64,000 nt of DNA from a candidate division WOR-3 bacterium (GCA_037443805.1 JBBINQ010000008.1:3075-67074), one strand, 5' to 3'. Shown: positions 1 through 19,145, counted from the stretch's first letter. The notes: generated by a model not told the origin, from the sequence alone. Numbers and translations are program-made.

Positions 1-2
1 GA

Positions 3-91
3 AAACAAGCAGAAACAGCATTAAAGATTGCTGAAGAATATGGTATGAAGAATACACACATCGGCAATGTTCATCTGCTAACAGACTGATT
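3..91 (+). CDS. 3' end of an unidentified upstream gene (partial, ...IAEEYGMKNTHIGNVHLLTD*)
   Basis: Open frame 3 runs from the window edge to TGA at 89-91; no recognisable domain. Confidence 0.25.
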
Positions 92-181: not shown

Positions 182-186
182 ATAGT

Positions 187-2370: not shown

Positions 2371-3744
2371 ATGACTAAAAAAGAATTGCAGATCATCATT
2401 CAGGAAGGCGAAGGCTACAGAATTGAATTCAAAGAAAGTATTTCAAACATAGACAAAGACCTCGTTGCTTTCGCCAATTCATCAGGTGGCAGGATATTTC
2501 TTGGGGTAACTGATGATAAAAAAATAGCAGGCGTGCAAATTACCAACAAACTCAAAACGCAAATTCAAGACATTGCCAATAATTGCCGACCTGAAATACA
2601 GATTATCATGGAACAATTCTATAATATTCTCATTATTGATGTCCGTGAAGGCTCTGATAAACCTTATGAATGCTCTTCGGGATTTTTCAAAAGGATTGGT
2701 CCTATTTCCAAGAAAATGACGCGAGACGAAATAATTGATTCAATAAAATCGGAAGGTAAGATCAGATTTGATGAACTAACTGCACAAAAATTCAGATACC
2801 CCACTGATTTTGATCGCAATAAACTTAAGAGATTTTTAGAATTAGCCGGACTGTCTAAATCATTAAAGGCAGAACCTGTTCTTGTTAATCTCGGCGTAGC
2901 CGAAAAACAAGAAGGAATACTTTATTTCAATAATGCTGGAGTACTGTTTTTCGCCAAAGAACCGCAAAAGTTCATCCCATGGTCAGTGTTCACAGTGGCT
3001 TTATTTAAGGATGAAGATGGTGTAGATGTGATTGACCGAAAAGAGATTGGCGGTTCTCTCTTTGAAATCGTTGACCAAGTCATGGATTTTGTAAAACTCT
3101 ATTCCAAAGTCGCTTATCGGTTTACTGGAAGACCGCAGCGCGAAAACATTTATGAATACCCTTTTGAGGCGATACGAGAAGCAGTAATAAATTCAGTTAT
3201 GCATAAATACTATTTTGAACATGGTCATAACAATATTTTACGCTTTCTGCCCAATAAAATACGAATTGAAAACTATTGGCAAAAACCACATAAATTTAGG
3301 CTTGGTAAAACAGTATTTAGAAGAAATCCATTGGTGGTTGATCTATTCGCACGAATTCACTTCGGCGAAAAGATGGGCACGGGTTTGGATAGGATGAAGA
3401 ATATTTGCAAGAAGGAAAATGCACCCTATCCAAAAATCGAATTTAACGAGAATTATTTTTATGTCACTTTTACGCCGAGCAAGGAATACCTTAAAATGGC
3501 AACGAAAAAAGAAACTAAAAGAAAATTTGATTTAAACAAACTCAATGAACGACAGCGAAAAGCGGTAGACTACGTGCGAAGGTATGGGCACATAGGGAAT
3601 AAAGAATATAGAAAAATTACAGGATTAGGAAAAGTCTATGCGGCAAAAGAACTAAATGAGTTAGTTAAGAAAAGAGTTCTTGTGAAAATCGGGAAGGGAA
3701 GCGCGACGCACTATGTACTCAGTGAACGATTAGTGAACGATTAG
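2371..3744 (+). CDS. AlbA_2 (Schlafen-like) DNA-binding domain / HATPase_c_4 / wHTH protein (RecG-like putative regulator) embedded in the R-M operon
   Basis: N-terminal ...RIEFKES...VAFANSSGGRIFLGV... matches the AlbA_2 fold; this architecture is commonly inserted between hsdM and hsdS. Confidence 0.7.
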   Translation: MTKKELQIIIQEGEGYRIEFKESISNIDKDLVAFANSSGGRIFLGVTDDKKIAGVQITNKLKTQIQDIANNCRPEIQIIMEQFYNILIIDVREGSDKPYECSSGFFKRIGPISKKMTRDEIIDSIKSEGKIRFDELTAQKFRYPTDFDRNKLKRFLELAGLSKSLKAEPVLVNLGVAEKQEGILYFNNAGVLFFAKEPQKFIPWSVFTVALFKDEDGVDVIDRKEIGGSLFEIVDQVMDFVKLYSKVAYRFTGRPQRENIYEYPFEAIREAVINSVMHKYYFEHGHNNILRFLPNKIRIENYWQKPHKFRLGKTVFRRNPLVVDLFARIHFGEKMGTGLDRMKNICKKENAPYPKIEFNENYFYVTFTPSKEYLKMATKKETKRKFDLNKLNERQRKAVDYVRRYGHIGNKEYRKITGLGKVYAAKELNELVKKRVLVKIGKGSATHYVLSERLVND

Positions 3745-3756
3745 TGAGCGATTACT

Positions 3757-5082
3757 ATGCAAGGTATAAAGAATCTCTCCGCCAGCACAAAATTTAAAAA
3801 AACACCCATCGGCGAAATTCCGGTTGACTGGAGCGTGGTTAAACTGGGTGATGTGATTTCTTTATTTCAAAACGGCATTTGGGGTGAAAAGCCATCCGCG
3901 AATGATATGTCTTTTCCAGTGATAAGATCAACAGAAATAACGTATGATTGTAAGATCAATGTCGCAACGGTAGAATACAGAAAAGTTCCTGAAGATAAAG
4001 TAGACAAATATAAATTAAAGGATGGTGATATACTTATAGTATCTTCAAGCGGTTCACCGCACTTAATCGGCAGAGTAGCACAATTCAAACACAATGCTAC
4101 TGATAAGCAAACATATTTATTCTCCAATTTTATGATAAGAATAAGACCTCAAGGTATAAATTCAACATTTTTGTTCTACTACTTAAATTCCTATTCGTAT
4201 TTTTGTTTCTTGAAAAATCTTCAGCAGACATCAACTGGATTAAGGAACTTACCGAGAACAGAGCTAATCAATTTTTATGTTCCCTTACCACCGCTATCTG
4301 AACAAGAAAAAATTGCTGCGGTTCTTACCTCTGTTGACGATACCATAGAAAAAACCCAGCAATTGATTGAACAGACAAAAAAACTGCAGAAGGCATTAAC
4401 CCAAGAACTACTAACCAAAGGCATTCCGGGTTTACACAAAAAATATAAGAAAACGATCTTTGGTGATATACCTGTAGACTGGGAGATTGTAAGATTAGGT
4501 GATGTCTTAATAGTAGTCAAAAATGGCCTTTCTTATAAACAATCACAAAATGCAGGTCGTTATTCAATAACAAGAATAGAAACGATTTCAGAAGGTGTAA
4601 TCAACGCAGATAAGGTTGGATATTTGGATCATTTGACCGATGAAGAAATCAGAAACAATAAATTAACGGCTGGTGATATTTTGTTTAGTAATATTAATAG
4701 TCTTGAACATATTGCCAAGACAGCCATTTATTTATCTTCACATCCGATGTTAATACACGGGATGAATTTATTGCTACTTAGGCCAAATAGAAGCAAAATA
4801 GAGCCATTCTTTCTGCTATTTTATCTTAAATTCAATGAGACGATCAATAGATTTAGACGGTTATCTAAAAAAGCTATTAACCAAGTATCAATTAATCAGA
4901 CTGAAATTAAGAATTTTCTTATTCCACTTCCAAGTCTTAACGAACAGAAATCCATTGTTAATTCTTTGCTCGCAATAGAACATAATCTTGTAGGCTTACT
5001 TAATCAGAAATTACAGATTGAAACCCTAAAACAAAGTCTCATGCAAGTTCTATTGACTGGCAAAGTAAGGTTAAAAAAATAA
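3757..5082 (+). CDS. hsdS: Type I R-M specificity subunit, full length (two TRDs)
   Basis: 441 aa; two conserved spacer motifs (FYVPLPPLSEQEKI...; FLIPLPSLNEQKSI...). Confidence 0.88.
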   Translation: MQGIKNLSASTKFKKTPIGEIPVDWSVVKLGDVISLFQNGIWGEKPSANDMSFPVIRSTEITYDCKINVATVEYRKVPEDKVDKYKLKDGDILIVSSSGSPHLIGRVAQFKHNATDKQTYLFSNFMIRIRPQGINSTFLFYYLNSYSYFCFLKNLQQTSTGLRNLPRTELINFYVPLPPLSEQEKIAAVLTSVDDTIEKTQQLIEQTKKLQKALTQELLTKGIPGLHKKYKKTIFGDIPVDWEIVRLGDVLIVVKNGLSYKQSQNAGRYSITRIETISEGVINADKVGYLDHLTDEEIRNNKLTAGDILFSNINSLEHIAKTAIYLSSHPMLIHGMNLLLLRPNRSKIEPFFLLFYLKFNETINRFRRLSKKAINQVSINQTEIKNFLIPLPSLNEQKSIVNSLLAIEHNLVGLLNQKLQIETLKQSLMQVLLTGKVRLKK

Positions 5083-5113
5083 TGCTTTTTTCTCAAGGTG
5101 GGTGGATAAAAAT

Positions 5114-5140
5114 TTCCTCCCCATTGATGGGGGAGGATTA
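5114..5140. repeat. Palindromic element TTCCTCCCC-ATTGAT-GGGGGAGGATTA (copy 1), followed by two degenerate half-copies at 5163-5183 and 5204-5224
   Basis: Near-identical copy at 46861-46887; stem CCTCCCC/GGGGAGG. Confidence 0.7.
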
Positions 5141-5245
5141 TTAAGGAGGAAATTATATACATACCAATTATCCCTCCCATCAAGGGCGGGAACAAAGAAA
5201 GAAAATATCCTCTCATCAAGGGATGGGAAGTTCAGGGTCATTACT

Positions 5246-8200
5246 ATGCCTTCTGATTGGGATGAGTTGCATTTAGTGGAAGAGCCGGCGATTGAAGTCC
5301 TGAAGGGGCTGGGATATACATTTGTTTCTCCGGAGGAATTGGATAAGGAACGGGAAGGCACCAAGAATGTAATTTTAGTCCCGCGGTTGGAAAAGGCGTT
5401 ACGGAAAATCAATCCCTGGATTTCAGACGAGAATATTAAAAGGGCAGTGCGTGCAATTGGACAGGTGCAGGCAACAAGTCTGATGGAAGCCAATGAACAG
5501 ATTCATACTGCATTAGTCCATACTATTTCTTTGGAGCAAGATATTGGTCAGGGAAAGAAAGGACAGCCAGTTCATTTTATTGATTTTGAAAATATTAAGA
5601 ATAACGAGTTTGTCATAACAAGGCAATTTAAGGTTACCGGACAAAAGGTGAGTATCCAAGCTGATATTGTGGTTTTTGTAAATGGCATTCCATTGGTTGT
5701 TATTGAATGCAAAAGTCCAACAATTAGAAACCCGATTGAAGAAGGAATTATTCAATTATTGCGTTATCAGGAAGCAGAGGAAAAATTTAAAGGTCTTGGC
5801 GCGCCAAAATTGTTTGAATCTTGTCAGATTGTTGCCGTTATTTGTCGGGAATCGGCTCGGTATGGAACATTATGGACGCAACCGAGATTTTGGAGCGAGT
5901 GGAAAACTACATATCCACTATCACTTGATGAAGTTAAGAGTCGCATTGGCAGATTGCCGTTGGCACAAGATGTATTTTTATATGGTATGCTTGCACGTGA
6001 TAATCTATTGGATTTAATCCGATATTTTATTGTTTTTGATATAGAAAAAGGCAAAACCATAAAGAAACTGGCTCGTTATCCGCAGTTTTTGGCAGTGAAC
6101 AATGCGATTGAACGTATTAAAAAGACTCGGATACCAAAGAAAAGGGGCGGTGTGGTGTGGCATACTCAGGGCGCAGGAAAGTCTTTGACCATGCTCTGGT
6201 TAGCAACAAAATTACGGAGAATGCCTGAATTTGAGAATCCAACGCTTGTAATTGTCACAGACCGAAAAGATTTGGATCGGCAGATCAACAAGACCTTCAA
6301 AAATTGTGGGTTTGCCAATCCGTTAAGGGCTAAATCGGGTGAAGATTTAAAAAATCTACTTACTATTGGCGTTGGGCAGACAGTTCTAACGACAATACAA
6401 AAATTTACCGATGCTGCACAGGTAGCAGCACTCATTGAGGCGACAAATATATTCGTGATGACCGACGAAGCGCACAGAACCGAATACGGTATTCTTGCCG
6501 CAAAGATGCGTCGTGCCTTGCCGAATGCATGTTTTCTTGCTTTTACCGGCACACCAATTGACAAGCGAGAGCGTAGTACACTCAGGACATTCGGCGATTA
6601 TATTCACACTTACACAATTGAACAGGCAGTCCAGGATGGGGCAACTGTTCCCATTTACTATGAGAGTAGATTGCCCGAAGTTCAGATTGTCGGTAATACT
6701 ATTGATACGCTTTTTGAACGCTGGTTCAGGGACTATACATCTGAACAGAGGGAAGAGATAAAACGGCGTTATGCCACCGAAGAGGTAATTGGCCAGTCAG
6801 CAAAAAGGATTGAAAGAATCTGTCTGGACATTGTAGAACATTATGAAAAATTCATTATGCCTAATGGATTTAAAGCACAGGTTGTCGCACCGAGTCGGGA
6901 AGCTGCAATTACTTATTATGAAACACTCAATCGCCTTAATGCACCATCAAGCGAGGTTCTAATTTCACCAGCACACAATGACCCGGAGCGTCTGGTCAGC
7001 CATTATAAAACTGAAGCCGAAGAGAAAGAGGTAATTAGAAGATTCATTGAAGAACCAGTTGAGGATTTAGCGATTATTGTTGTCTGCGACAAATTGCTTA
7101 CTGGTTTTGACGCACCGATTGAACAGGTGATGTATCTTGATAAACCATTGAGAGAACATACTCTTTTGCAGGCAATTGCCCGGGTAAATCGCACATATGA
7201 AGGTAAGGACTACGGTTTGATTGTTGACTACTGGGGCGTATCCCGTGAATTGCAAGAGGCATTGAATGTATTTAGACCCGAAGATATTATTGGTATTCAA
7301 AGATATTTTGAAGATGAACTACCCAGATTAGAAACAAGGCATCGTGCGGTAATGCGCTTTTTTGATAATGTCAATAAAGCGGACATTAACGAGTGCATCG
7401 CGGTCCTTGAACCTGAGGATGTCAGAGCTGATTTTGACACTGCATTTCGTCGTTTTTCAAAAAGTATGGATATGATGCTCCCTGACCCAAGGGCATTACG
7501 ATTTATCGCTGATTTAAAATGGCTTGGCCAGGTTCGTAATGCGGCACGCTTGAGATATCGGGATGATACACTTGATTTAGCCGGTTGCGGAGCAAAAGTC
7601 AGGCAACTCATTGAAGAACATCTGACTGTGACCGGCATTACAAAATTGATTGAGCCGGTATCTATCTTCTCCAGCAAATTTGAAGAAGAGTTGGCTAAAC
7701 TCAGCTCACCTGAGGCAAAGGCAAGTGAGATGGAGCATGCGATACGACACGAAATTAATATTCGGTTAGATGAAAATCCCGTATATTACCAATCATTAAA
7801 AGAAAGGCTTGAGCAGATTATTGAACAGCGTAAACAGGAAAGAATAGATGCCATAAAACAACTGGAATTATTAGAAAAATTAGCAGAAGAAATGAAAAAT
7901 CTGCATAAAATTGCAGAGTCAATCGGCATGACCGAGGCGGAGTTCGCTTTTTACAAATTGCTCTCATCAGGGCACGATGACAAAACTAAAAGTGTCAAAG
8001 ACATTCAAGTTTCTGATGTTGAGCCTACTTATGAGGCTATAAACGAATCTCACAAGGAACTTGCGGGATTAATAATAGAGTCGCTTGAAAAACTGATTGT
8101 CATTGATTGGATTCACAAAGAAGATGTTCAGCGCGAGATGCGCAGACAAATTAAGAGACATCTGCGGGCAGCAGGGTATGGACCCGAAGAAATTGAACAT

Positions 8201-8248
8201 CTGACTTTAAAAATGATGGACCTGGCACGGATTAGATTTGCCCAATGA
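5246..8248 (+). CDS. hsdR: Type I R-M restriction subunit R (SF2 helicase/endonuclease)
   Basis: N-terminus MPSDWDELHLVEEPAIEVLKGLGYTF... resembles HsdR N-termini; DEAH-like TDEAHR; helicase motifs. The track ORF from 5102 reads through the palindromic element and is probably an over-extension. Confidence 0.9.
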   Translation: MPSDWDELHLVEEPAIEVLKGLGYTFVSPEELDKEREGTKNVILVPRLEKALRKINPWISDENIKRAVRAIGQVQATSLMEANEQIHTALVHTISLEQDIGQGKKGQPVHFIDFENIKNNEFVITRQFKVTGQKVSIQADIVVFVNGIPLVVIECKSPTIRNPIEEGIIQLLRYQEAEEKFKGLGAPKLFESCQIVAVICRESARYGTLWTQPRFWSEWKTTYPLSLDEVKSRIGRLPLAQDVFLYGMLARDNLLDLIRYFIVFDIEKGKTIKKLARYPQFLAVNNAIERIKKTRIPKKRGGVVWHTQGAGKSLTMLWLATKLRRMPEFENPTLVIVTDRKDLDRQINKTFKNCGFANPLRAKSGEDLKNLLTIGVGQTVLTTIQKFTDAAQVAALIEATNIFVMTDEAHRTEYGILAAKMRRALPNACFLAFTGTPIDKRERSTLRTFGDYIHTYTIEQAVQDGATVPIYYESRLPEVQIVGNTIDTLFERWFRDYTSEQREEIKRRYATEEVIGQSAKRIERICLDIVEHYEKFIMPNGFKAQVVAPSREAAITYYETLNRLNAPSSEVLISPAHNDPERLVSHYKTEAEEKEVIRRFIEEPVEDLAIIVVCDKLLTGFDAPIEQVMYLDKPLREHTLLQAIARVNRTYEGKDYGLIVDYWGVSRELQEALNVFRPEDIIGIQRYFEDELPRLETRHRAVMRFFDNVNKADINECIAVLEPEDVRADFDTAFRRFSKSMDMMLPDPRALRFIADLKWLGQVRNAARLRYRDDTLDLAGCGAKVRQLIEEHLTVTGITKLIEPVSIFSSKFEEELAKLSSPEAKASEMEHAIRHEINIRLDENPVYYQSLKERLEQIIEQRKQERIDAIKQLELLEKLAEEMKNLHKIAESIGMTEAEFAFYKLLSSGHDDKTKSVKDIQVSDVEPTYEAINESHKELAGLIIESLEKLIVIDWIHKEDVQREMRRQIKRHLRAAGYGPEEIEHLTLKMMDLARIRFAQ

Positions 8249-8979
8249 AAATCCATAAAATTAGTTTCGGCAGAAAAATAATAAGGTTTGTAATTAAACG
8301 GACAAAACGCAAAAAAACAATGTCGATTTCAGTCGGGCTTGATGAGGAAGTAAAAGTAAAAATACCTTACAGGCTTGTGGCAAAAAAAGTGTATCCAATA
8401 ATAAAAAAGAAAGCACCATGGATTTTGAAACATTTAAATGATATAAAGGAAATGCATTATCCAGTTATAAAGCATGAATTTGTCAGTGGTGAGTCTTTTT
8501 CTTACTTGGGCAGACATTTCCGTCTAAGGGTGAAAAAACTAAAAGGTACAATAAAGCCTAATGTTGTGACGAATGCTGGGTATCTTGAAACTACGGTTAG
8601 TAGTGCTTTAAGTAAGCGGAAACAAACTGAAACCGTGCGTTTGGCACTCATTGAATGGTACAAAAAACATGCAATTGCGAAACTGGGCGAAAGGGTATCC
8701 ATTTATGCCCGAAAAATGGGACTTACAAAACCAATAGTTTTAGTGCGAGACCAGAAGAAGCGTTGGGCAAGTTGTTCAAAAACTGGTGTTTTACGATTTA
8801 ATTGGCGAATTATAATGGCGCCGATATCAATCATTGATTATATTGTCGTCCATGAACTCAGCCATCTCAAAATCAAAAGCCACTCGGCAGAGTTTTGGAA
8901 GCAAGTGTCTTCAATTATACCAGATTATGAGCGCAGAAGATTATGGCTCAGGAACAATGCGGGGATATTTAGATGGTAA
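8245..8979 (+). CDS. DUF45/YgjP-like (SprT/WLM-type) HExxH zinc metallopeptidase
   Basis: 244 aa; HELSHLKIKSHSAEFW motif; start overlaps hsdR stop (ATGA), a common hsdR-linked accessory gene. Confidence 0.75.
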   Translation: MKIHKISFGRKIIRFVIKRTKRKKTMSISVGLDEEVKVKIPYRLVAKKVYPIIKKKAPWILKHLNDIKEMHYPVIKHEFVSGESFSYLGRHFRLRVKKLKGTIKPNVVTNAGYLETTVSSALSKRKQTETVRLALIEWYKKHAIAKLGERVSIYARKMGLTKPIVLVRDQKKRWASCSKTGVLRFNWRIIMAPISIIDYIVVHELSHLKIKSHSAEFWKQVSSIIPDYERRRLWLRNNAGIFRW

Positions 8980-9638
8980 AAAATGTAAGTAACAGAAATA
9001 TGAAAAAAATATTATTAATTACTGAACAGCCAGAACAATACCCACCGAGTGTCGTTCAACCACATCTGAGAGCAATCGCCCAATGCACGCCTATCAACGC
9101 ATGTTGGGGAAATGTTGTCCACAATCCTATCGGACTTGCCCTGAACTCTAATCCATTTGGCACTAGCACTTTGACATTGCAACGTCTTGATAGAATATTC
9201 AATTGGCTTCTTACCCGCGGGCACACATATTACTGGACACACTGGATCAAATGCCCGCGACAAGGATACCCCAAAAATATATATTTTAATGACGCATGCG
9301 CTAATAATTGGCTCCATCAAGAAATAAGTCAATTTATTCCGGATGTTATCTTCACATTTGGTGAACATGCCACATCATTTGTTTTAAAAAGACTCGCTGG
9401 TTTTAATATTCATAATCATGAATTTACAGATATTCTATGGGAATTCGTTAGATCATGTTTCAAAAATCGAAATAGAAGAGCAATTATGCTGAGAAATGTC
9501 AAACCGTCGATTCAAGTGCATCTTATTCCACTTCCTCATCCAAGTGGTGCTAATAATCTAAGTAGATTGTTTTTTAATAAATCTAACAAATTACGAGTAG
9601 AAATCCGAAATTATCTATTAACCAGAAGAATACTATAA
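8973..9638 (+). CDS. Uracil-DNA-glycosylase-superfamily-like protein with degenerate motif A
   Basis: ...THWIKCPRQG..., ...IFTFGEHATSFV..., ...PLPHPSGAN resemble UDG family-4 motifs (NIVKCRPP, LGxxA, HPSP), but GE(A/G)PG is replaced by ACWGN. Confidence 0.4.
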   Translation: MVKNVSNRNMKKILLITEQPEQYPPSVVQPHLRAIAQCTPINACWGNVVHNPIGLALNSNPFGTSTLTLQRLDRIFNWLLTRGHTYYWTHWIKCPRQGYPKNIYFNDACANNWLHQEISQFIPDVIFTFGEHATSFVLKRLAGFNIHNHEFTDILWEFVRSCFKNRNRRAIMLRNVKPSIQVHLIPLPHPSGANNLSRLFFNKSNKLRVEIRNYLLTRRIL

Positions 9639-9957
9639 CCACAAATTTCCTAAAAATAAACATTGAAAAATCACCAATACCTATAATCTGGCTGGATTCC
9701 TCTATTATTATTATTCATATAGCAAAAAGCAAAGTAGGCGAAAAAATTGATAGAGACTTAAAGAACAAGGTGAACTACTTATACAACGCTATTAGAGTCC
9801 TCACAAGAAAAAGGTAATTACTATATCACCATGAAGGGTAAGAAGAAAAAGTTGAATTAGGTGAAAAATTTAAATATAAATGTAGAAAAATCCCCTGTAA
9901 TTCGCCACCCCAGTCATTTTATCATTTTGACAATTGTAAAAATGACAAAACGAAGAT

Positions 9958-10518
9958 TTAGTAATTATTTTGTTCTAAGGGAACATAAACAAGTTTATCC
10001 GACTTGCGGAATCCCCTTTTCAATAAGATATCTCTTTCCTTCAGCAGGCAACTGCGGTTGTGCTTGATGGCGTCATCAAAATTACCTGTTAGCCAGGCAT
10101 TCATACAAGCCATACTATTATCATAAAATGGATCATCGTAATTTAAAATTTGCAGATCAATTACAACATCCTTTTTTCGTTCATACATAGCACTATTCAA
10201 TTCTCCTTCAAATTCAATTTTTTGGTTAAGAAAATAGAATAATACGCTTCTTTCAAAATTAGTGTTAAAAGCATAGTATGGCCTTTTCAATTTAGGCAAT
10301 AAGATTAAAATTTCCTTTTTTAATTCAGGGACTGAATCGTTATCCACTGCGCATAATATTTTTATTCGGCGATTATTTATTGTGCCAAAAATAAAGGGAA
10401 TAATGTTTATACAACGGCGCGAATCACGATACTGATTAAAAAAATAACCATAAGTTTCAAGGTCAATTATTGTGCCCTTGAAATCCGATGTTATTTCTTC
10501 GGTATATACTTTAACCAT
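9958..10518 (-). CDS. Small protein with DnaQ/Orn-like (DEDD-type) 3'-5' exonuclease motif I (IIDLETYG); candidate partner/effector of the upstream cyclase-STAND gene
   Basis: 186 aa. Motif I DLET near the N-terminus. Possible motif II FNTNFERSVL and motif III NFDDAI with substitutions. ATG overlaps the stop of the 1035-aa gene (ATGGTTAA). Confidence 0.45.
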   Translation of the reverse strand: MVKVYTEEITSDFKGTIIDLETYGYFFNQYRDSRRCINIIPFIFGTINNRRIKILCAVDNDSVPELKKEILILLPKLKRPYYAFNTNFERSVLFYFLNQKIEFEGELNSAMYERKKDVVIDLQILNYDDPFYDNSMACMNAWLTGNFDDAIKHNRSCLLKERDILLKRGFRKSDKLVYVPLEQNNY

Positions 10519-13500
10519 TGGTGTATTTTTTATACAGGGAGAGAAAACTCAGAGGGGATGTTTTCTTTTTTAAGGTCTTTTTATCTGGTATTATTGATAT
10601 CAGGTTCTGTTTTTTCAAAAATTTATATGCCTCTTCTTTTTTGCCTCGCGCGAGCAAGTAGATAAAATATTCATTACAAAATAAATTTTCTTTTCCCTTT
10701 ATAATTTTTTCAACATCTTCTAATTTACCATAGTATAACAGAAGTTTAAGATAACCAGCAGCATACAATTTTGTTGCGTTTGCCACCTCATCATGCAGTC
10801 TGGCAAAATATTGTGCGTTAGCCTTCTGATTTAGTAGTATATGAAGTTCAGTCAGCGCCAATAAAACAATGGATTCCCAGTAAGGAAAACTGATTGTCTG
10901 AAAATTTTTGAGGCTCTTTTTGAGGTAATTTTGGGCGATTTCAAAATTTCCTTTTAACATTTCAATCTGTCCAAGCCTTAAGAGTGCTGTCCCTTCATCA
11001 AATAAATCACCTTCTTTAACGAATTTGAGTGACTGGTGAAAATATTTTTCAGCCTTTAAATATTCCATTTTTTTAAAATAAATCCAGCCAATATTGTAGT
11101 AACTTCCTATTAAAGCCCCAAGATGATTCTTCTGCCGGGCAAGGACTAAAGATTTCCGATACTGTAACAGTGCCTCGTGGTTTTTCCCAATCATATCATA
11201 ATAGATGCCCCATAGTTCAGTTTTTAATAATTTTTCTTTAATATTTAATGGATATTTGTCCAGTGCCCTGAGAACTCTTTCCATCTTTGGATACTGATTA
11301 CTCCAGTCATATAATCCGGCAAGTGCAAATAACACTTCTTTTTTAATCGATTTAATCTTCTTGAGCTTCAATAGAATCTCCTCTGCATCGTAATAGTCTG
11401 ATACTTTTATCAAATACAGGGCATTAATAAAAGAACTTGTGTTTTTTGTCGGCGTATCATCATAACTACCCAAATTTTGTATTATTTTTGCAATTTCACT
11501 CTGAAATCCCTGGCTGTAAAGTTCATCAAATGTGTCAGCCCAGTATGGTAGTGCCCTATAAGAATTTCCTGCTTCAGTGAAATGCCTGGCGATTTCATAA
11601 GGACTCCTGCCTTCTTGCACAAAAATTTCGCCAATCTGTTTTTCATATTTTTTTCTGTGCGTATCAAGTAGTGAATCCAGTATTGCTTCACGAAATAAGG
11701 CATGCCTGAACTGGAATATGCGGTCATTCTTTAGAATTATGCCTTTATCAATGGTTGATTTAAAGTCTATATTTTTATTACTGAAGAATTTTTTAATGGT
11801 CTGGTCAGAGAATTCCATACCAATACAGGAACCGATTTCAAGGAGTTTTTTTGCACTGGAGGATAGATTATTGAACTTTGATAATAGAATGGAGTGTATA
11901 CTAAAAGGTAATGTGTGTGCATCATCACAGATAGAAAACTTTTTTCCTTTATTAATAATAAATTTTTTTTCCTGCAAATCTTTTATTATTTGTTCAAAAT
12001 AGAAAGGATTTCCCTGAGTACGTTCCTGCAGAAAATTGTAGAATTTTTTATCTGGTGGTGCACCCAGTGTTTCTTCAGCGAGATTCTTTAAATGCTCCGA
12101 AGATAAATTTGCACAACCTATTTTTTCTATTTTAAGCTTATCCGCAAATCTTTCACCTTCCTGCCTTGATGAGGCAATAATGATAAATGGTAGCGGCATC
12201 AAATCTTTTAATAACATAAATGATACATCATCTATCCATTGCAGGTCTTCAACAAAGATTATCAAGTTGGACTTTGTTTTGAATAACTTTTTTAATAATT
12301 CCAGCACTTTAATTTGAGGCAATTGTAGTGAACCATTAAGGTAATTCTTAAGTTCAGGAAATTCGCCTTCAGGAAAGTGTTTAAAAATCTCTTTTAATAA
12401 AAAGAGTGGTGAAGAAACAGGTAAGAGTGCTACTTCAATAACATTTTTCTGTTTTATCTTTTTCCTCAACTCATAGAGCAACCGTGATTTTCCAGTTCCC
12501 CCATCACCAATAAAGCATATACTTTTATTGTTTCTTATAAGACTTAAACCGGTCTTGAATTCTTTTGCCCTGCCCACAAATTTAAAACTGAACCGTGCAG
12601 GATTCAATACACCGGCAACTCTCTCCTGTGGAATATAAATTCCAATCTTTTCTTCTTTACCTTTTAATTTTGTAGCACCTACATATGTAAAATTAAATCT
12701 ATGTTTCAATACTTGTTGAATCTCTGCTGAGAGATATATACTATTTTCAGGTGCAAGTGCACATAATCGGGCAGCAATATTGACCGAATCGCCAAGTACT
12801 GCAAATTCTGTAAATTTTTTTGTTTTAATTTCTCCCGCAAATACAATCCCTGAACTGATTCCCATTTTAAATTTATGACCCTTGAATTCAGTTTTTAATC
12901 TATTGAAGATATCAATGCACATCTCTGCTTCTTTTCCTGAAGACTCAGGAAAACCGGCAATGAGCAGTGCCTGGAAACCATCAATGGTGGGAATCCATTT
13001 TAGTAACTTTATTTTGTCTTTCTGTTCACAGAAGAAAGAGCTTAGCAAATAGACCAGAGCAATATTTTGCGGGACTTTAAAAAACACAATATAAAGGGGT
13101 CTATGCGCAGGAGGATAATCCAGTTTCTGTGAGATACTCGGAAAGTCTGGAAGAGCAGTGCCTTTCTGCAGTGAGGCAGAAAGAATATCTATCTTTCCTG
13201 CAGGGGTCTTTTCTTCTAATAAATTCAGGTCATAGAGCACCTGACCATTAATAAGCAAGTCCTGATAATTATCCGATACCTGTAGCCAATCACCTTCAAT
13301 CAGTCCTGATACTGCAACAAATCGGGTCTTAAGGTTATTTTTCTTTAAGATTCTTAGATTTAGAAGTTCTTTACCCAGTATCTTTAATCTTTCTTTTTCA
13401 ATATTTCCTGGAAATATTGCATAAAAAGCATCACCAGCGAGTTTAAAAATCCTTCCCTGACAATTTAGAATTTTATTTTCTGCTTCTTTAAAAAAATTTG

Positions 13501-13618
13501 TAATTATTGCACTTAACTGCTCAGTACCTTTTTTTCCTTTTTTTGCCAGTTGTTCACTCAGTGTAGTAAAACCACCAATATCCTGGATTCCTATCCAGTA
13601 GTTACCTTTAAATTTCAT
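10511..13618 (-). CDS. Multidomain signalling ATPase: tandem class-III nucleotidyl cyclase homology domains + STAND (AAA_16) NTPase + TPR repeats
   Basis: CHD1 has IQDIGGFT/KLAGDAFYAIF. CHD2 has GISSGIVFAGEI...VLGDSVNIAARL. Walker A GDGGTGKS, Walker B IIFVEDLQWIDD. The C-terminal ~450 aa is TPR-like. Confidence 0.85.
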   Translation of the reverse strand: MKFKGNYWIGIQDIGGFTTLSEQLAKKGKKGTEQLSAIITNFFKEAENKILNCQGRIFKLAGDAFYAIFPGNIEKERLKILGKELLNLRILKKNNLKTRFVAVSGLIEGDWLQVSDNYQDLLINGQVLYDLNLLEEKTPAGKIDILSASLQKGTALPDFPSISQKLDYPPAHRPLYIVFFKVPQNIALVYLLSSFFCEQKDKIKLLKWIPTIDGFQALLIAGFPESSGKEAEMCIDIFNRLKTEFKGHKFKMGISSGIVFAGEIKTKKFTEFAVLGDSVNIAARLCALAPENSIYLSAEIQQVLKHRFNFTYVGATKLKGKEEKIGIYIPQERVAGVLNPARFSFKFVGRAKEFKTGLSLIRNNKSICFIGDGGTGKSRLLYELRKKIKQKNVIEVALLPVSSPLFLLKEIFKHFPEGEFPELKNYLNGSLQLPQIKVLELLKKLFKTKSNLIIFVEDLQWIDDVSFMLLKDLMPLPFIIIASSRQEGERFADKLKIEKIGCANLSSEHLKNLAEETLGAPPDKKFYNFLQERTQGNPFYFEQIIKDLQEKKFIINKGKKFSICDDAHTLPFSIHSILLSKFNNLSSSAKKLLEIGSCIGMEFSDQTIKKFFSNKNIDFKSTIDKGIILKNDRIFQFRHALFREAILDSLLDTHRKKYEKQIGEIFVQEGRSPYEIARHFTEAGNSYRALPYWADTFDELYSQGFQSEIAKIIQNLGSYDDTPTKNTSSFINALYLIKVSDYYDAEEILLKLKKIKSIKKEVLFALAGLYDWSNQYPKMERVLRALDKYPLNIKEKLLKTELWGIYYDMIGKNHEALLQYRKSLVLARQKNHLGALIGSYYNIGWIYFKKMEYLKAEKYFHQSLKFVKEGDLFDEGTALLRLGQIEMLKGNFEIAQNYLKKSLKNFQTISFPYWESIVLLALTELHILLNQKANAQYFARLHDEVANATKLYAAGYLKLLLYYGKLEDVEKIIKGKENLFCNEYFIYLLARGKKEEAYKFLKKQNLISIIPDKKTLKKKTSPLSFLSLYKKYTNG

Positions 13619-13652
13619 ATTTAAGGTTTCTGCCCCCCAGGGAAAATTTAAT

Positions 13653-13674
13653 TTGATTATAAGATTATAATCAA
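13653..13674. promoter_or_regulatory. Perfect 10-bp inverted repeat TTGATTATAA-GA-TTATAATCAA carrying two TATAAT boxes; candidate promoter/operator of the cyclase-STAND operon and terminator region of the upstream ACAD
   Basis: Lies ~35 nt upstream (minus strand) of the ATG at 13618; a G-rich RBS (GGGGGG) lies between. Confidence 0.45.
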
Positions 13675-14756
13675 ATGGTCAGAGAGGCAATCAATTCTTC
13701 TGTTTCAATATTTGAACTGCACAATACACGGGAGACCTGCGCATCCCTGAAATATCGCTCAACCGGATAGTCCTTCATATAACCATAGCCACCATAGACC
13801 TGGATGGCATTGGTTGTGATCTCTGCAACAGCCTGGTTACTGAAATACCGTGCAATCGCTGCACCACGAACATAGTCTTTACCACTATCTCTGATACTGG
13901 CTGAATCGTATAGCAATAACCGCATTGCCTCAATCTTTGTTGCCATATCCGCAATGAGCTCGCGCACCATACCAAAATTGATGATTGGTGTGCTAAACTG
14001 AACCCGTTCTTTTGCATATTTTATTGCATTCTCCATTGCTGCCTGGCAAATACCAAGATTAATTGCCGCAAATGCTAAATTTGCAAAGGATGTAATCTCT
14101 TTTAGAATTTCGTTTCCAGCATTAGGTATAAGGTTCTGCTTTGAGATTATACAGTTATCAAATTCCACCTGGGTAATGCCACTGGCATGCATTCCAATGA
14201 TATTATCTTTTTTATGCCTCTTCACATTAGCGTTATTCCCATCAATAACCAAACCATTCAATGTGCCATTGTTTTTTACAAAAGTCATAAATGGCCCATT
14301 GGCTACACCGTTCAATAAAATATGATTTTTGCCGTTAATTACAAAAGAATCAGTATTCTCTGATGCTTTGATTTCATTGGTTCCAACCTCAGCAAATCCA
14401 CCTATGATCTCACCTGTGGCCGCTCTGGGAAGATACAATTTTTTCTGTGCATCATTGCCAAACTTTGCGAGTGGATAAGAGAATAGAACATTATGGGTGG
14501 CAATGACCAGGGCAGTTGAAGGGCAGACTTTACTGACCTCTTCAAGGCAGACAAGTAATGAGATGGTATCAAGGGCACAACCACCAAAGGATTCAGGGAT
14601 TGCTCCTCCGAGAATACCCATTTCTGCAAGTCTTTTAATATTTTCAACCGGGAAGATACCCTGCTTGTCAAATTCATCAACCTTCTCTGCAATGACATCC
14701 TTTGCAAATTTTTTAATTTCATTCTGTAATAATATTATTTCTTTATTGAATTCCAT
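13671..14756 (-). CDS. Acyl-CoA dehydrogenase family protein
   Basis: 361 aa; ACAD N-terminal, middle and C-terminal domain signatures (...YGGYGYMKDYPVERYFRDAQV...). Confidence 0.85.
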   Translation of the reverse strand: MEFNKEIILLQNEIKKFAKDVIAEKVDEFDKQGIFPVENIKRLAEMGILGGAIPESFGGCALDTISLLVCLEEVSKVCPSTALVIATHNVLFSYPLAKFGNDAQKKLYLPRAATGEIIGGFAEVGTNEIKASENTDSFVINGKNHILLNGVANGPFMTFVKNNGTLNGLVIDGNNANVKRHKKDNIIGMHASGITQVEFDNCIISKQNLIPNAGNEILKEITSFANLAFAAINLGICQAAMENAIKYAKERVQFSTPIINFGMVRELIADMATKIEAMRLLLYDSASIRDSGKDYVRGAAIARYFSNQAVAEITTNAIQVYGGYGYMKDYPVERYFRDAQVSRVLCSSNIETEELIASLTI

Positions 14757-15904
14757 TATTCACTCCTTTTGTAGCCGATTTCACGGATTATTTCTAAGGC
14801 AATCTGGCCACGCTGAATCTGATTTGTGCCTTCGTATATCTGGGTAATCTTAGCATCCCGTAACATCTTTTCTACATTATATTCTCTTAAAACTCCATAA
14901 GGACCCATAATCTCAATCGCGGTAAGGGTTGATTTCATTGCGATATCTGAGGGAAATAATTTAGAAAATGATGCGGGCTTTGTAGTATTCTTTATGCCTG
15001 CATCAATTGACCGTGCAGCAGCATAGATCAATGCCCGGGCAGACTCAATTTCAGTTGCCATATCAGCAATCCGGCGTTGAATGTATTGATTGCCGAGCAG
15101 GTCTTTCTCCGCGCAAAATTTGAGCACTGATTCATAAGCACCCTGGGCAACACCGAGCCCTATTGCGCCAACACCCGGACGTGCACGGTCAAAATTCCGC
15201 ATTGTATAGATAAAACCCATACCTTCTTTTCCCATTAAATTCTCTTTCGGCACCTTGCAATCAGAAAAAACAAGTTCGGTCGTAATTGATGTCCTGATAC
15301 CGAGTTTATTTTCGTGCTTGCCAAATTCAAATCCAGGCATACCCTTTTCTACAATAAATGCGGAAATGCCCCTTGCCCCGCGTGATTTGTCAGTTGAGGC
15401 AAGAACAACATACACATCTGCAATACTACCATTAGAGATAAATTGCTTTACCCCATTTAAAATATAGTAGTCACCATCTTTGCGTGCGGTGGTCTGGATA
15501 TTTGCAACATCACTTCCTGCCTGGGCTTCAGTAAGACCAAAGGCGCATAATAGTTCACCACTGGCAATCTTTGGTAAATATTTTTTCTTCTGTTCTTCAG
15601 AGGCGAAATAGATAATCGGTCCTGAACCGAGTGCACCGACCGCATACGCTGTGGCTACGCCTGCACAGACACGGGCTACCTCTTCGCAGGCAATACTCAT
15701 ATCCATTATCCTTGCTCCTGTGCCACCATATTCTTTAGGAATGAAGATGCGCAGTAATCCTTGTTTAGCCATCAGTTCAATAATTTCGCGCGGAAACTCT
15801 GCTGTCTTATCCAGTTCATCACGTGCCGGCAGGATTATCTCTTCTGCTATCTTACGAACCTTTTCCTTTAATGCCTTTTCCTCATCATTTAAAAAATATT
15901 CCAT
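14756..15904 (-). CDS. Acyl-CoA dehydrogenase (short/branched-chain type)
   Basis: ACAD motifs (GSDVANIQTTA..., QIYEGTNQIQR). The start is moved to the second ATG, which follows a GGGAGG RBS at 5-nt spacing; the track ORF starts at 15925. Confidence 0.88.
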   Translation of the reverse strand: MEYFLNDEEKALKEKVRKIAEEIILPARDELDKTAEFPREIIELMAKQGLLRIFIPKEYGGTGARIMDMSIACEEVARVCAGVATAYAVGALGSGPIIYFASEEQKKKYLPKIASGELLCAFGLTEAQAGSDVANIQTTARKDGDYYILNGVKQFISNGSIADVYVVLASTDKSRGARGISAFIVEKGMPGFEFGKHENKLGIRTSITTELVFSDCKVPKENLMGKEGMGFIYTMRNFDRARPGVGAIGLGVAQGAYESVLKFCAEKDLLGNQYIQRRIADMATEIESARALIYAAARSIDAGIKNTTKPASFSKLFPSDIAMKSTLTAIEIMGPYGVLREYNVEKMLRDAKITQIYEGTNQIQRGQIALEIIREIGYKRSE

Positions 15905-16026
15905 ATACCTCCCTTTCTGTTCCATTAATCAAAAAGAAAATATATTTTAATAATTTTTAAATCAAAGTCAAGTAAGGGTTTATTTAGAATCTTGATTTTA
16001 TAAAAAAATGGGATAAAATTATTATT

Positions 16027-16371
16027 ATGAAGATAAAGAATATTAATGAGATAAACCCTGAATTGCCCCAGATGCAGGGCACAAAGGATACCACAATCCA
16101 ATGGCTCATAACAAAAAATGATGGTGCAATGCATTATGCAATGCGGGTATTTACGATTGAACCAGGAGGACAGATACCATTACATTCTCACAGTGATATG
16201 GAGCACGAAATATTTATTATTGAAGGTGAGGCGGTATTAAATACAGGAGAGGCAGAGATTCCCGTAAAAAAAGGAGATGCCCTATTGGTCTTACCCAAAG
16301 ACAAACATGGTTTTACAAATATTTCTACTACACCATTTAAATTTATCTGTGTAATACCCATTCTTAAATAA
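16027..16371 (+). CDS. Cupin-domain protein
   Basis: 114 aa; HSHSDMEHEIFIIEGEA...KGD cupin_2 metal-binding pattern. Confidence 0.75.
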   Translation: MKIKNINEINPELPQMQGTKDTTIQWLITKNDGAMHYAMRVFTIEPGGQIPLHSHSDMEHEIFIIEGEAVLNTGEAEIPVKKGDALLVLPKDKHGFTNISTTPFKFICVIPILK

Positions 16372-16377
16372 TCAGAT

Positions 16378-17517
16378 GTGAGTAAATTTGATATTATTGT
16401 TGTCGGTGCTGGACCTGCGGGTAGCAGTGCAGCACTGAGTGCAGTAAAAGAGGGTGTATCAGTTCTGCTCCTTGAAGAGCATCCAATAATTGGTATCCCC
16501 TTGCAATGTGCTGAAGGTTTATCCCGCAGCACAATAAAGAACTATCTTGAAATCAAACCCGAGTGGACTTCAGTAAATCTTACTGGTTCAGTTGTACGTG
16601 GTCCAACTGGTGAAGAATTCAAGATTGAATATCCGAATGTAGGCTGGGTTTTGAATAGAAAAATCTTTGATGCAGAGATTGCAAAGATGGCAGTAGAGAA
16701 AGGTGCGGTGCTCAAGACAAATTCAAAGGTGATTGGAATAGAAAACAGTAATGTTATTGTAAAAGAAGATAATACAATAAAAAAATATCAATACAAATTT
16801 CTCATCGGTGCAGATGGTATGGGTTCTAAGGTAGGCAATTGGATGGGCATTGATACAAGATTGGGATTAAATGAGATTGAAATTTGTGCTGAATATCTGA
16901 TTGAAAATATAAAAATTTTACCCAATTATACATATCTCATATTTGATGAAAAGATTGCACCAGGTGGTTATGCCTGGATATTTCCCAAATCAGATTCTTC
17001 AGCAAATGTTGGTCTGGGGATCTCTCCGCTGAAAACAAAAAAAAGGGCAAAAGATTATCTTAATGAATGGATAAAGAATGAATTTCCTGAAGGAATAGTC
17101 AAAGAAAAGATTTTTGGTGGTGTGCCAGCAAAGGTTTTGAAAAGATTTTCTGGCAAAAATTTCTTTCTGGTTGGTGATGCAGCAAGATTTACTGATCCAT
17201 TAAGCGGTGCAGGTATTGCCAATGGCATTAAATCCGGGATTATCGCGGGTAGAAATGCAGTTTTAAGACTGAAGCGCAAAAAAGATTTTTTTGAAAAAGA
17301 GATTGAAAAAGAGATTCTTGAAGAGATTAAGTTCCACAAAAAAGTGAGGGATATTTATTTAAAACTTGATGAACAGGATTATAGAAAAATTTTCCAGCTC
17401 GGGAAAAAATTCTTTGCAGATAAAACCATAAATGATATTAATACCCGCGCACTGGTCAGGGAAGTAATTATAAACTTGCCCTATCTTCTGCCTCTTACCC
17501 TGCGTATATTGTTCTGA
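16378..17517 (+). CDS. Geranylgeranyl reductase-family FAD-dependent oxidoreductase
   Basis: GTG start; DIIVVGAGPAGSSAA Rossmann FAD motif; GDAAxxxxPxxGxG C-terminal motif. Confidence 0.8.
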   Translation: MSKFDIIVVGAGPAGSSAALSAVKEGVSVLLLEEHPIIGIPLQCAEGLSRSTIKNYLEIKPEWTSVNLTGSVVRGPTGEEFKIEYPNVGWVLNRKIFDAEIAKMAVEKGAVLKTNSKVIGIENSNVIVKEDNTIKKYQYKFLIGADGMGSKVGNWMGIDTRLGLNEIEICAEYLIENIKILPNYTYLIFDEKIAPGGYAWIFPKSDSSANVGLGISPLKTKKRAKDYLNEWIKNEFPEGIVKEKIFGGVPAKVLKRFSGKNFFLVGDAARFTDPLSGAGIANGIKSGIIAGRNAVLRLKRKKDFFEKEIEKEILEEIKFHKKVRDIYLKLDEQDYRKIFQLGKKFFADKTINDINTRALVREVIINLPYLLPLTLRILF

Positions 17518-17536
17518 TACTAAATCCTCTGTAGCA

Positions 17537-17977
17537 CTATTTCAGGGAAATATTTACCGGATAACTTATCTCACCAATAACTGTTTTGATATATGCCTTT
17601 GCCTTGATGCTATAGGATGCACTCTTTAATCGCAATGCCTCAACAATAGCCTGTCCAATCTTTGTATACTCAAGTGAAATGGTTGTAGTAAAATTTTCAG
17701 ATTTGCCTGCCTGCACTTTCAATCCTTTTCCTGTGGTTCCAGAAAATACATCGGTCTGGTTCGCATAGAATGTATAATCAAGTCTATCAAGGACCGCATC
17801 TATATCATTTGGATTCTGCACCTTCAATGTAAAATCAACCTTTACATCTGAGAATGTGAAGTCATAAGGATTTGCTGAGAGAAAGGTAAACTTGCATTCT
17901 TTTATTGCCAGACGTTCTTTTATGGCAGAGCAAGAAGCAATAAGAATGATTGAGCATATAATTATTATTTTATTCAT
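17537..17977 (-). CDS. LEA14/WHy-domain lipoprotein
   Basis: 146 aa; signal peptide with lipobox (LIASCS); WHy-like beta-sandwich pattern. Confidence 0.6.
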   Translation of the reverse strand: MNKIIIICSIILIASCSAIKERLAIKECKFTFLSANPYDFTFSDVKVDFTLKVQNPNDIDAVLDRLDYTFYANQTDVFSGTTGKGLKVQAGKSENFTTTISLEYTKIGQAIVEALRLKSASYSIKAKAYIKTVIGEISYPVNISLK

Positions 17978-18137
17978 AAAAGATTATATTCAAAACTATT
18001 GATAAATCAAGGATGGTTATAGGGCGTGGTTTATGGTCAGGGCAATAATACACGACCAAAGAATTTTCGGCCAACCCCAAGGATTGTTCCGTGCCCAGCT
18101 GTAGTTGCCCGATTTATCGGGCAGAAATTTTTTAATC

Positions 18138-18171
18138 TAAAAAATAAAAAAGGGGAGCATTGCTCCCCTTT
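18138..18171 (-). terminator. Rho-independent terminator (GGGGAGC-ATT-GCTCCCC, then a U-run on the minus strand)
   Basis: 7-bp GC-rich stem at 18152-18168 flanked by A/T runs; directly downstream of the 18189-18932 gene. Confidence 0.75.
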
Positions 18172-18188
18172 AGTAAAGAACAAAATAT

Positions 18189-18932
18189 TTATGCTGCTGG
18201 TTTTGCAAGCTTGAAGTAGTGTTTTACTTTCCAACCCTCACTCAAGAGAATGAAGTATCCATCATAACCCTCTGGGTCTGGCTCAGCAAAGAATTCATAC
18301 TTTACAAAGATGGTCTGGTCAAACTTTGCCCAGTTCTCTTCGGTTGTGCCTGAACCATCTTCAGCAAAACGGAACTGAGCAGATAGCCTAATATCTGATG
18401 AAGTCGTAATATCAATTGCTGCCTGTTCAGTGATTGTGCTATTATCAAATGTGTATCTGTACCAGGTGGTATTCCAGTTCCATTTAAAATCACCTGTGAC
18501 ATGGGTTGTATCAGGAATTCCAACTACTGCATGGAACCAGATGTCTCTGTTATCCGCAAGCAAGCCAATGTCCATCTGGGTAATGGTGCTATCCTGATAA
18601 AGGGTATCCCAGATATCAGGTGTGAACATAAGATAGATATGGCCTGAATCAATGGTTACACCCTGGCTATCAACCGGGAATTTAATGGTCCAGCGATAGT
18701 ATAAATCTGCCCATTCATCAGGGACATCAAAAGTATCCGGTCCTTCCCACAGTGGTGGTGCATTCAAGAATGAATTGCTGTATGCATCAACATCGGTCAT
18801 AATGCCGAGCATGGTCAAGCCCTGAACAAGATTCTGTGCCTCATACAGTTCGTTCTCATCAGTTTTTTTACCGCATCCAACAAACAATAACGCCAGCAAC
18901 ATAATCCCTGCAACAACGAGTTTTGGCTTCAT
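18189..18932 (-). CDS. Secreted lipoprotein, function unknown
   Basis: 247 aa; signal peptide and lipobox (LLFVGCGKK). Confidence 0.6.
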   Translation of the reverse strand: MKPKLVVAGIMLLALLFVGCGKKTDENELYEAQNLVQGLTMLGIMTDVDAYSNSFLNAPPLWEGPDTFDVPDEWADLYYRWTIKFPVDSQGVTIDSGHIYLMFTPDIWDTLYQDSTITQMDIGLLADNRDIWFHAVVGIPDTTHVTGDFKWNWNTTWYRYTFDNSTITEQAAIDITTSSDIRLSAQFRFAEDGSGTTEENWAKFDQTIFVKYEFFAEPDPEGYDGYFILLSEGWKVKHYFKLAKPAA

Positions 18933-19089
18933 ATTACCTCCTTTTTCTATTATATATTATAATCCAAATTACTCGTCTGTCAATACCTAAATGCAAATTT
19001 TGTGCCAGGAATAGAAAAGAAAAATATATGAAAAATAATGAGTTTAATTGCATTAGATTCCCATTGTATTATAAAAAAGTGCAACTATT

Positions 19090-19129
19090 TAAAAAAAAGA
19101 TAACAGAAGGGGCAAAAATGCCCCTTCTG
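19090..19129 (-). terminator. Rho-independent terminator (11-bp stem CAGAAGGGGCA/TGCCCCTTCTG, loop AAAA, then an 8-U run)
   Basis: Perfect hairpin at 19104-19129 followed on the minus strand by TTTTTTTT; downstream of the T9SS-CTD gene. Confidence 0.85.
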
Positions 19130-19145
19130 TTTCTGTTCTGATGAA

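Follow-up and report, generated by a model that had tools for sequence, protein, structure and literature searches.

A cyclase–STAND–TPR gene and an unnamed exonuclease-fold gene in a candidate division WOR-3 genome are probably chance neighbours rather than an antiphage system

Single-chain class III cyclases in which two halves form a pseudo-heterodimer are represented by human soluble AC (sAC, 4clf), by the C1/C2 pair of membrane AC9 (6r3q) and by a tandem AC-like protein of P. aeruginosa (6yii). The order of cyclase, AAA_16-type NTPase and helical or TPR region is found in the M. tuberculosis proteins of the Rv0386/Rv1358/Rv2488c type and in the TOMM kinase/cyclase fusion proteins (TIGR03903), and Avs proteins likewise place an enzymatic domain at the N-terminus, a STAND NTPase in the middle and TPR-like repeats at the C-terminus. 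Pycsar also employs a class III-type cyclase. We analysed a locus of two overlapping minus-strand genes in a 64,000-nucleotide stretch of the genome of a candidate division WOR-3 bacterium (GCA_037443805.1, JBBINQ010000008.1:3075-67074; hereafter the window). The large gene (10511–13618) was called as an open reading frame (ORF) whose translation of 1035 residues begins with two class III cyclase domains in tandem, followed by a STAND (AAA_16) NTPase and, at the C-terminus, a helical region with TPRs; the small gene (9958–10518) is an ORF for 186 residues encoding a predicted DEDD-type 3'-5' exonuclease-fold protein of an unnamed family. An earlier note on this DNA had read the pair as a two-gene antiphage module. 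Our results favour another reading, which we hold with good though not full confidence: two unrelated genes abut by chance in one WOR-3 lineage and do not form a new antiphage system, because no other lineage was found to have the two genes side by side and the neighbouring type I restriction-modification (R-M) island is strain-specific.

Both ORFs, with the stop of one overlapping the ATG of the other, were confirmed by ORF calls and by reading of the sequence, and the motifs IQDIGGFT, AGDAF, GDSVNIAARL, GDGGTGKS, IIFVEDLQWIDD and IIDLETYG, quoted previously, were all found in the translations. The junction reads ...ACCAATGGTTAA, the small ORF beginning 8 nt before the large one ends; the 8-nt overlap ATGGTTAA (10511–10518, minus strand), read directly from the sequence, holds the small-gene start codon and the large-gene stop codon. 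Since no intergenic space remains, the small gene is probably co-transcribed with the cyclase gene in the window, and the linkage would be needed by neither gene. Two other loci, L024 and L023, share this junction; both come from the window's own species and were found through the small gene. Comparison of the window with L024 indicates purifying selection on both genes, the ratio of nonsynonymous to synonymous substitution (dN/dS) being 0.07 in the small gene and 0.17 in the large gene.

A homology search with the large protein returned an identical protein and 14 relatives at 40–65% identity from WOR-3-type metagenome-assembled genomes (MAGs), one of which carries the name candidate division WOR-3. 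Thirteen of the 14 are about 1035–1055 residues long and one is shorter, at 815. Beyond a sharp drop in identity follow hundreds of cyclase/AAA_16/TPR proteins of 1000–1500 residues that are 20–29% identical, and the orthologues proper come only from WOR-3-like MAGs. Five clades of these orthologues (45–65% identity), among them those at 65%, 62%, 57% and 45%, are without an intact small gene. In the 65% clade the large gene is directly followed by a convergent radical-SAM gene, in the 62% clade by a B12/radical-SAM gene and in the 57% clade by Pal/YbgF/TolQ/TolR/TonB genes; in the 45% clade it forms a monocistronic unit flanked by TspO and peptidase genes. Directly upstream of the large gene in the window lie two acyl-CoA dehydrogenase genes (13671–15925, minus strand; Pfam), and this synteny is conserved: the order acyl-CoA dehydrogenase, acyl-CoA dehydrogenase, cyclase recurs in L021, L022, L104, L105 and L112 (ACAD1 92% identical) and is thereby kept in three clades, namely the 65% clade, the 62% clade and L112. 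These orthologue contexts, together with the conserved upstream order, identify the large gene as a syntenic core gene.

The small gene was followed in the same way from its own side, by locus scans with peptide patterns in one genome per species, which found it in 111 species; 80 loci were fetched. No cyclase lies within 6 kb of it in the 79 other species-level genomes of these 80, and six further small-gene homologues have toxin-antitoxin modules, RtcB or ABC transporters as neighbours instead of a cyclase. When the large protein was compared by tblastn with 103 loci, four matched: L024 and L023, and L021 and L022, the latter two having entered the set by way of the large gene.

Traces of the junction are nevertheless seen outside the window's species. 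In the 62% clade (L022 10102–10150, L105, L111), a small-gene remnant of 16 codons stands directly 3' of the large-gene stop. Its DNA (GAA ATA AAA GTT TAT ATT GAG AAA ATA AAA TCA GAT GTT AAA GGC ACA) encodes IKVYIEKIKSDVKGT, of which 15 of 16 residues are identical to the N-terminus of the small-gene homologue P0004; similarity ends thereafter. The start codon is lost, and the DNA is nearly identical to the 5' end of the P0004 gene, which has an unrelated context (L116). The remnant reads as a decayed small gene at exactly the window's junction. P0002, a 76% homologue, follows a pyridine-nucleotide-disulphide oxidoreductase (Pyr_redox_2) gene (L118 1160–1183) and is preceded by TATAAAAAATATGCCAATGG (about 20–22 nt), which matches the last codons of the large gene (YKKYANG); by this match, the copy once abutted a cyclase gene. 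A candidate relic of the large-gene 3' end upstream of the P0003 homologue (L011) agreed at about 12 of 20 positions by eye and was rejected. As judged from these sequences, the junction is ancestral to a WOR-3 subclade, in whose ancestor the small gene would have inserted at the cyclase-gene 3' end, and it has since been broken repeatedly by loss of either partner, which argues against an obligatory partnership.

The type I R-M cluster described as lying tail-to-tail with the pair was borne out by Pfam annotation (a 9.8-kb island, 82–9913, plus strand). The defence-island context that had been drawn from it was not, since the island is missing from L024, which carries the pair. This sister strain matches window 16519..9914 at 95% DNA identity and then continues with window 81..3, the 3' end of a convergent radical-SAM gene, with about 90 unrelated bases (L024 6606–6695) in place of window 82–9913. 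The island is therefore a later, strain-level insertion or replacement, and the gap between the convergent cyclase/exonuclease and radical-SAM genes is, on this comparison, a variable hotspot where the island would have arrived after the small gene. No tRNA was found in window 1–20000, and no transposase or integrase at the borders of the island and the small gene. The ends of the island have in common words of just 9–10 nt, for which reason no att site or target duplication can be claimed.

Overall, all three context-based expectations of the earlier note fail, leaving the antiphage module unsupported: the pair is not co-conserved, both genes occupy housekeeping contexts elsewhere, and the R-M neighbour is strain-specific. 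Checks on gene-neighbourhood conservation and on non-defence contexts, set beforehand, came out against the module through the dehydrogenase synteny of the large gene and the recR/recO placement of the small-gene family described below. With the proposal not standing, the effort of cloning and plaque assays is spared.

Taken by itself, the large protein is a predicted class III cyclase. CHD1, the first cyclase homology domain (CHD; about residues 1–150, 13169–13618, minus strand), is a C1-like half that keeps the metal-binding D13 (QDIGGFT) and D63 (AGDA), the Asn/Arg pair being absent; CHD2 (about residues 170–335, 12614–13111, minus strand) is a C2-like half without both metal Asp that keeps K207, N280 and R284 (GDSVNIAARL). 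Across the alignment of 14 orthologues, D13 and D63 (KLAGDA) are invariant in CHD1, whose second half has no Asn/Arg, and K207, N280 and R284 (GD.VN.AARL) are invariant in CHD2, where the metal-binding Asp are absent. The previous description of CHD1, with both Asp kept and a degenerate second half, agrees with this, as does the canonical second half ascribed to CHD2. In Pfam, Guanylate_cyc matches residues 236–325 of CHD2 only (46.5 bits against a cut-off of 21.9), and CHD1 was not detected by sequence in the scan of the large protein. The cyclase region was modelled with a predicted local distance difference test score (pLDDT) of 85.5 and a predicted template-modelling score (pTM) of 0.84; structural claims here and below rest on predicted models. 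The model superposes on sAC 4clf, AC9 6r3q and 6yii over 316, 302 and 297 residues, respectively, which, with the invariant residues, upholds the idea of tandem, complementary CHDs resembling a single-chain pseudo-heterodimer. The predicted model and the alignment together give the features of a class III cyclase: a CHD sequence match, a head-to-tail pair of folds, and two Asp with Asn/Arg.

The catalytic roles of D13, D63, N280 and R284 are assigned by motif comparison. One composite active site would form, to which CHD1 would give the two metal-binding Asp and CHD2 the purine-selecting Lys and the transition-state Asn/Arg. From motif comparison with mammalian AC2, K207 presumably stands at the position of the adenine-selecting Lys, and the second base-specifying position, which we take to be Ala273, is not Asp. 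Because K207 occupies the adenine-selecting position, we predict cyclic AMP (cAMP) as the product.

The STAND NTPase module follows at about residues 346–560 (11939–12583, minus strand), with Walker A GDGGTGKS and Walker B IIFVEDLQWID. AAA_16 matches residues 346–476 (38.7 bits, cut-off 32.6), and G376, K377, S378, D458, W461 and D463 are invariant among the 14 orthologues (GxGKS and hhhhED). The C-terminal helical/TPR region (about residues 560–1035, 10514–11938, minus strand) has Pfam matches to TPR_12 (37 bits, cut-off 30.1), TPR_1 and TPR_2 covering residues 839–907, and a weak TPR_MalT match at residues 797–950. The AAA_16 and TPR matches substantiate the STAND-TPR layout that had been proposed. 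Binding of a ligand or partner at the TPR sensor would lead to nucleotide-dependent oligomerisation and thereby switch cAMP synthesis, making the large gene product a conserved, chromosomally stable signalling protein with a cyclase head fused to a STAND NTPase and TPR sensor. Sequence and model together thus describe a clean bacterial single-chain C1/C2-like cyclase, putatively under a STAND-TPR switch. The architecture is already known; its significance here is that of a core gene in an uncultivated phylum.

Comparison with the described systems places the protein more closely. Unlike the single-chain pseudo-heterodimers, it continues into a STAND NTPase and a TPR region, has no membrane domain and has no adjacent effector that binds cyclic mononucleotides. 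TOMM_kin_cyc of NCBIfam matches residues 432–865 with an E-value of 3e-30, below the model cut-off, and the WOR-3 protein differs from the TOMM kinase/cyclase proteins in having no kinase domain. The mycobacterial cyclase-ATPase-TPR proteins carry a C-terminal LuxR helix-turn-helix domain, which the WOR-3 protein lacks. As for the Avs-like assignment made earlier, the layout is shared, but a PADLOC scan gave zero matches of Avs models to the large protein, only partial PycC and TPR matches, and the orthologues do not occur in variable defence islands; in contrast to Avs, the large gene is a syntenic core gene beside acyl-CoA dehydrogenases. We know of no cyclase head described as an Avs effector. 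The likeness to Pycsar extends to weak partial PycC matches at CHD2 (PADLOC, E 2.6e-5) and to the structural neighbour 6YII, which has been described as a clade A Pycsar cyclase, PycC (PMC11224242). The WOR-3 cyclase departs from Pycsar by its fusion to STAND-TPR, its invariant Lys at the purine-selecting position and its core-genome context. A Pycsar-type effector with a cyclic-nucleotide-binding domain (PycTM/PycTIR) was not found, the sole operon partner having no Pfam or PADLOC domain.

The small protein belongs to a family without a name. It has no match in Pfam, NCBIfam, PADLOC or PHROGs, as a single sequence or by way of 28 relatives; in Pfam, neither it nor any of 28 relatives in alignment A1 matched at E-values up to 10, and PDB sequence-profile searches with alignments A1 and A4 gave chance matches only (SETMAR, MTH0777). 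Its 502 homologues, about 180 residues long and 50–76% identical, are every one annotated 'hypothetical protein'. A profile search over 1.84 billion representatives recovered just 205 clusters, so that the family is compact. The predicted model has an RNase H-like exonuclease fold, with PolB exonuclease domains and MrfB as its closest structural neighbours (Pol epsilon 12.2, Pol II 12.2, MrfB 8un9 12.1, diDNase 11.6, epsilon subunit of Pol III 11.2).

The motifs agree with this fold in part. IIDLETYG had been read as DEDD motif I, rightly so, since D19 and E21 of the Exo I D-x-E are invariant in 28 close relatives and conserved in at least 90% of 52 diverse ones; G45, D129, P130, H153, N154, C157, L158 and E161 are also conserved among these 52. 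Exo II is N85-x2-F88-E89, where close relatives have Glu and several of the distant relatives Asp, a conservative substitution. With D19 and E21 conserved and Glu or Asp at position 89, Exo I and Exo II are both present. The E-for-D substitution reported for motif II is therefore real (E89), but the N-for-H substitution reported for motif III is not, H153 being present and invariant. In Exo III, H153 is followed at +4 by an invariant Cys (C157) and at +5 by L158, and the nearest conserved acids are E161 (+8) and D163.

Eight members of the family are fused to other domains (P0244, P0247, P0248, P0256, P0260, P0310, P0334 and P0341): an N-terminal topoisomerase-type Zn ribbon (Zn_ribbon_Top1) in three, VRR-NUC in one, a Pol beta palm/thumb in one and a C-terminal WYL domain in three. 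The distant WYL-fused members are the only ones touching RNase_H_2 (PF13482), with a partial match to the last helix (P0310, E 7e-6), and through them the family is distantly linked to the MrfB/YprB-like exonucleases. The WOR-3 small protein differs from MrfB/YprB and PolB in its Exo II acid, mostly Glu, its invariant Cys four residues after the His and its E161 eight after; from MrfB in its minimal form of about 180 residues without a TPR tail; and from the RNase_H_2 family in that it and 27 close relatives have no Pfam match at all. By fold and motifs, the small protein would add a new branch, as yet unnamed, to the DEDD exonuclease superfamily, one for which Pfam and NCBIfam hold no model.

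Clustering of neighbours at the 80 loci placed RecO downstream of the small gene in 27 (immediately so in 20), RecR upstream in 23, and YbaB and DnaX in 19 each, with LysS and SerS downstream; the identities were confirmed by Pfam. The recurrent order is dnaX-ybaB-recR-[small gene]-recO-lysS-serS, seen at about 30 Chloroflexota/Dehalococcoidia loci among L031–L101 (for example L055 2938–3480 and L072 6001–6525) and in a few MAGs with proteobacterial labels and matching synteny. Literature searches found no report of a recR-recO-linked exonuclease in Dehalococcoidia. Elsewhere the gene is solitary, as in Thermodesulfobacteriota, a Woesearchaeote and close relatives, where its neighbours are PIN/RHH, CopG, BrnT, HicAB, RtcB and ABC transporter genes, and no recurrent partner appears at the DPANN, Bathyarchaeia, Methanophagales, Thermodesulfobacteriota, Cloacimonadota or WOR-3 loci. 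The patchy distribution and the 50–60% identity of the small protein between bacteria and DPANN or other archaea suggest horizontal spread of the family. In L011 (571–631; also L013) a 75% homologue has a textbook promoter, TTGACA-17-TATAAT, about 20 nt 5' of its ATG, marking it as an independent transcription unit.

From the fold, the DNA-related fusions and the recR/recO synteny, our best functional guess for the small protein is a 3'-5' exonuclease that would trim DNA 3' ends during replication or recombinational repair. The recR-recO-embedded gene may accordingly be a core repair or replication factor of Dehalococcoidia, a testable hypothesis for organisms that are hard to study. A fuller reading, to which we give slightly less than an even chance, is that of an undescribed compact DEDD-like family (D-x-E; N-x2-F-E/D; D-P; H-N-x2-C-L-x2-E), fixed in Dehalococcoidia as dnaX-ybaB-recR-X-recO, where it would serve as a missing RecFOR partner or a stand-alone proofreader, and carried by horizontal transfer into DPANN, Bathyarchaeia and several phyla of anaerobic bacteria. 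Its recruitment in WOR-3 as the translationally coupled partner of a STAND-regulated cyclase would be a less likely addition.

Other explanations were weighed against that of two chance neighbours. The pair could be a lineage-specific signalling or defence module in which STAND-TPR would detect an invader and respond by cyclic-nucleotide synthesis or NTP depletion, with the exonuclease as effector or modulator. The 8-nt overlap, a junction kept in two strains under purifying selection, its relics in other lineages, the weak PycC matches and the Pycsar label of 6YII (PMC11224242) would all fit. Each partner is nevertheless kept without the other in every other sampled lineage, the large gene sits in conserved metabolic synteny rather than variable islands, no Avs model matches and the R-M neighbour arrived later; moreover, Pfam scans found no nucleotide-sensing domain in the small protein, and it has no relatives in viral contigs. 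We therefore regard such a module as highly improbable. Much the same holds for a small protein of the nanoRNase or dinucleotidase type (Orn/NrnC/diDNase-like), or one turning over cyclic nucleotides to clear the products of the cyclase. DEDD enzymes act on 3'-terminal phosphodiesters and not on 3',5'-cyclic mononucleotides; beyond this general knowledge of their substrates, the structures closest to the small protein are PolB exonuclease domains and MrfB, the fusion partners bind or process DNA and the conserved context is recR/recO, all of which makes this alternative very unlikely.

It is less improbable, though still unlikely, that the small gene moves horizontally as a single-gene cassette, either selfish or with an accessory defence or anti-defence role, and that the site after the cyclase gene is an insertion hotspot. 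The identity of 50–60% between bacteria and DPANN or other archaea points this way, as do the toxin-antitoxin genes often nearby, the R-M island taken in at the same site, the 22 nt of large-gene end that one copy took to a new context, and the promoter of its own in L011. Stable recR-recO synteny across Dehalococcoidia tells against a cassette, as do borders free of transposase, integrase, repeats or tRNA and a search of IMG/VR viral contigs that gave no relatives of the family; a cassette would in any case be compatible with an exonuclease and repair function.

Several observations weigh against our reading of chance neighbours, one of them a putative DNA repair exonuclease. The 8-nt overlap is exactly as translational coupling would look, and with junction relics in three lineages it makes some lineage-specific functional interplay possible. 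The closest bacterial tandem-cyclase structure, 6YII, is called a clade A Pycsar cyclase (PMC11224242), so tandem CHDs do occur in defence. Locus scans by pattern detect only fairly close relatives. The DNA-repair role draws on synteny in one phylum and on rare fusions. Finally, with C157 and L158 where the canonical H-x3/4-D spacing would place the final acid of motif III (H258-x3-D262 in MrfB; PMC11194089), catalysis by the small protein may differ or be absent.

The R-M island contains, in order, a half-size hsdS, hsdM, an SLFN/AlbA_2-HATPase gene, a full hsdS, hsdR, a YgjP-like metallopeptidase gene and a UDG-like gene (Pfam), with a complete type I set of N6_Mtase and HsdM_N, Methylase_S twice, and HSDR_N, SWI2_SNF2 and T1RH-like_C. 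The SLFN/AlbA_2 and HATPase_c_4 protein (2371–3744, plus strand), encoded between hsdM and hsdS, matches a pAgo-associated model (E 7e-17) and SIR2-type Aga models in PADLOC; its gene may have an accessory role in defence or regulation within the island. At 8245–9638 (plus strand), the metallopeptidase gene overlaps the end of hsdR and is followed by the UDG-superfamily gene, both strain-specific.

Promoter-like hexamers, TTGAAA-17-AATAAT, were found by consensus scan at 10590–10618 (minus strand), in the large-gene 3' end about 70 nt 5' of the small-gene ATG, a consensus match that by itself does not speak for function. Upstream of the large gene, a perfect 10-bp palindrome had been described as an operator-like site overlapping the promoter. 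The palindrome does exist, and it exceeds the length described: two arms of 12 bp flank a 2-nt spacer (ATTTGATTATAA-tc-TTATAATCAAAT, 13651–13676). It lies 33 nt upstream of the large-gene ATG, where it overlaps the TGA that ends the preceding acyl-CoA dehydrogenase gene; the promoter scan placed no sigma-70-like hexamers over it. The window holds two inverted repeats with 12-bp arms, where dinucleotide shuffles predict 0.025. The 95% sister strain retains the palindrome, the corresponding intergenic regions of L021 and L022 lack it, and neither a second copy nor a half-site regulon was found within the window. For want of promoter hexamers, a second copy in the window and conservation in L021/L022, the operator was rejected as an assignment. 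As RNA, the palindrome gives an 11-bp A/U-rich hairpin within a weak longer fold (−18.3 kcal/mol), just marginally stabler than shuffled sequences (z −1.7). The palindrome may act as an operator, may attenuate or terminate transcription from the dehydrogenase gene, or may have no role at all.

Perfect inverted repeats with arms of at least 10 bp occur four times in the 64 kb, against 0.6 expected from shuffles; the further ones are at 13399–13419, 18149–18171 and 19104–19129, one of them inside the cyclase gene. In L021 (6975–6990), the A/T palindrome between the dehydrogenase and cyclase genes is replaced by a hairpin, GGTGC-GAAA-GCACC, with a GNRA-type loop, and the presence of a hairpin in this gap may matter more than its sequence.

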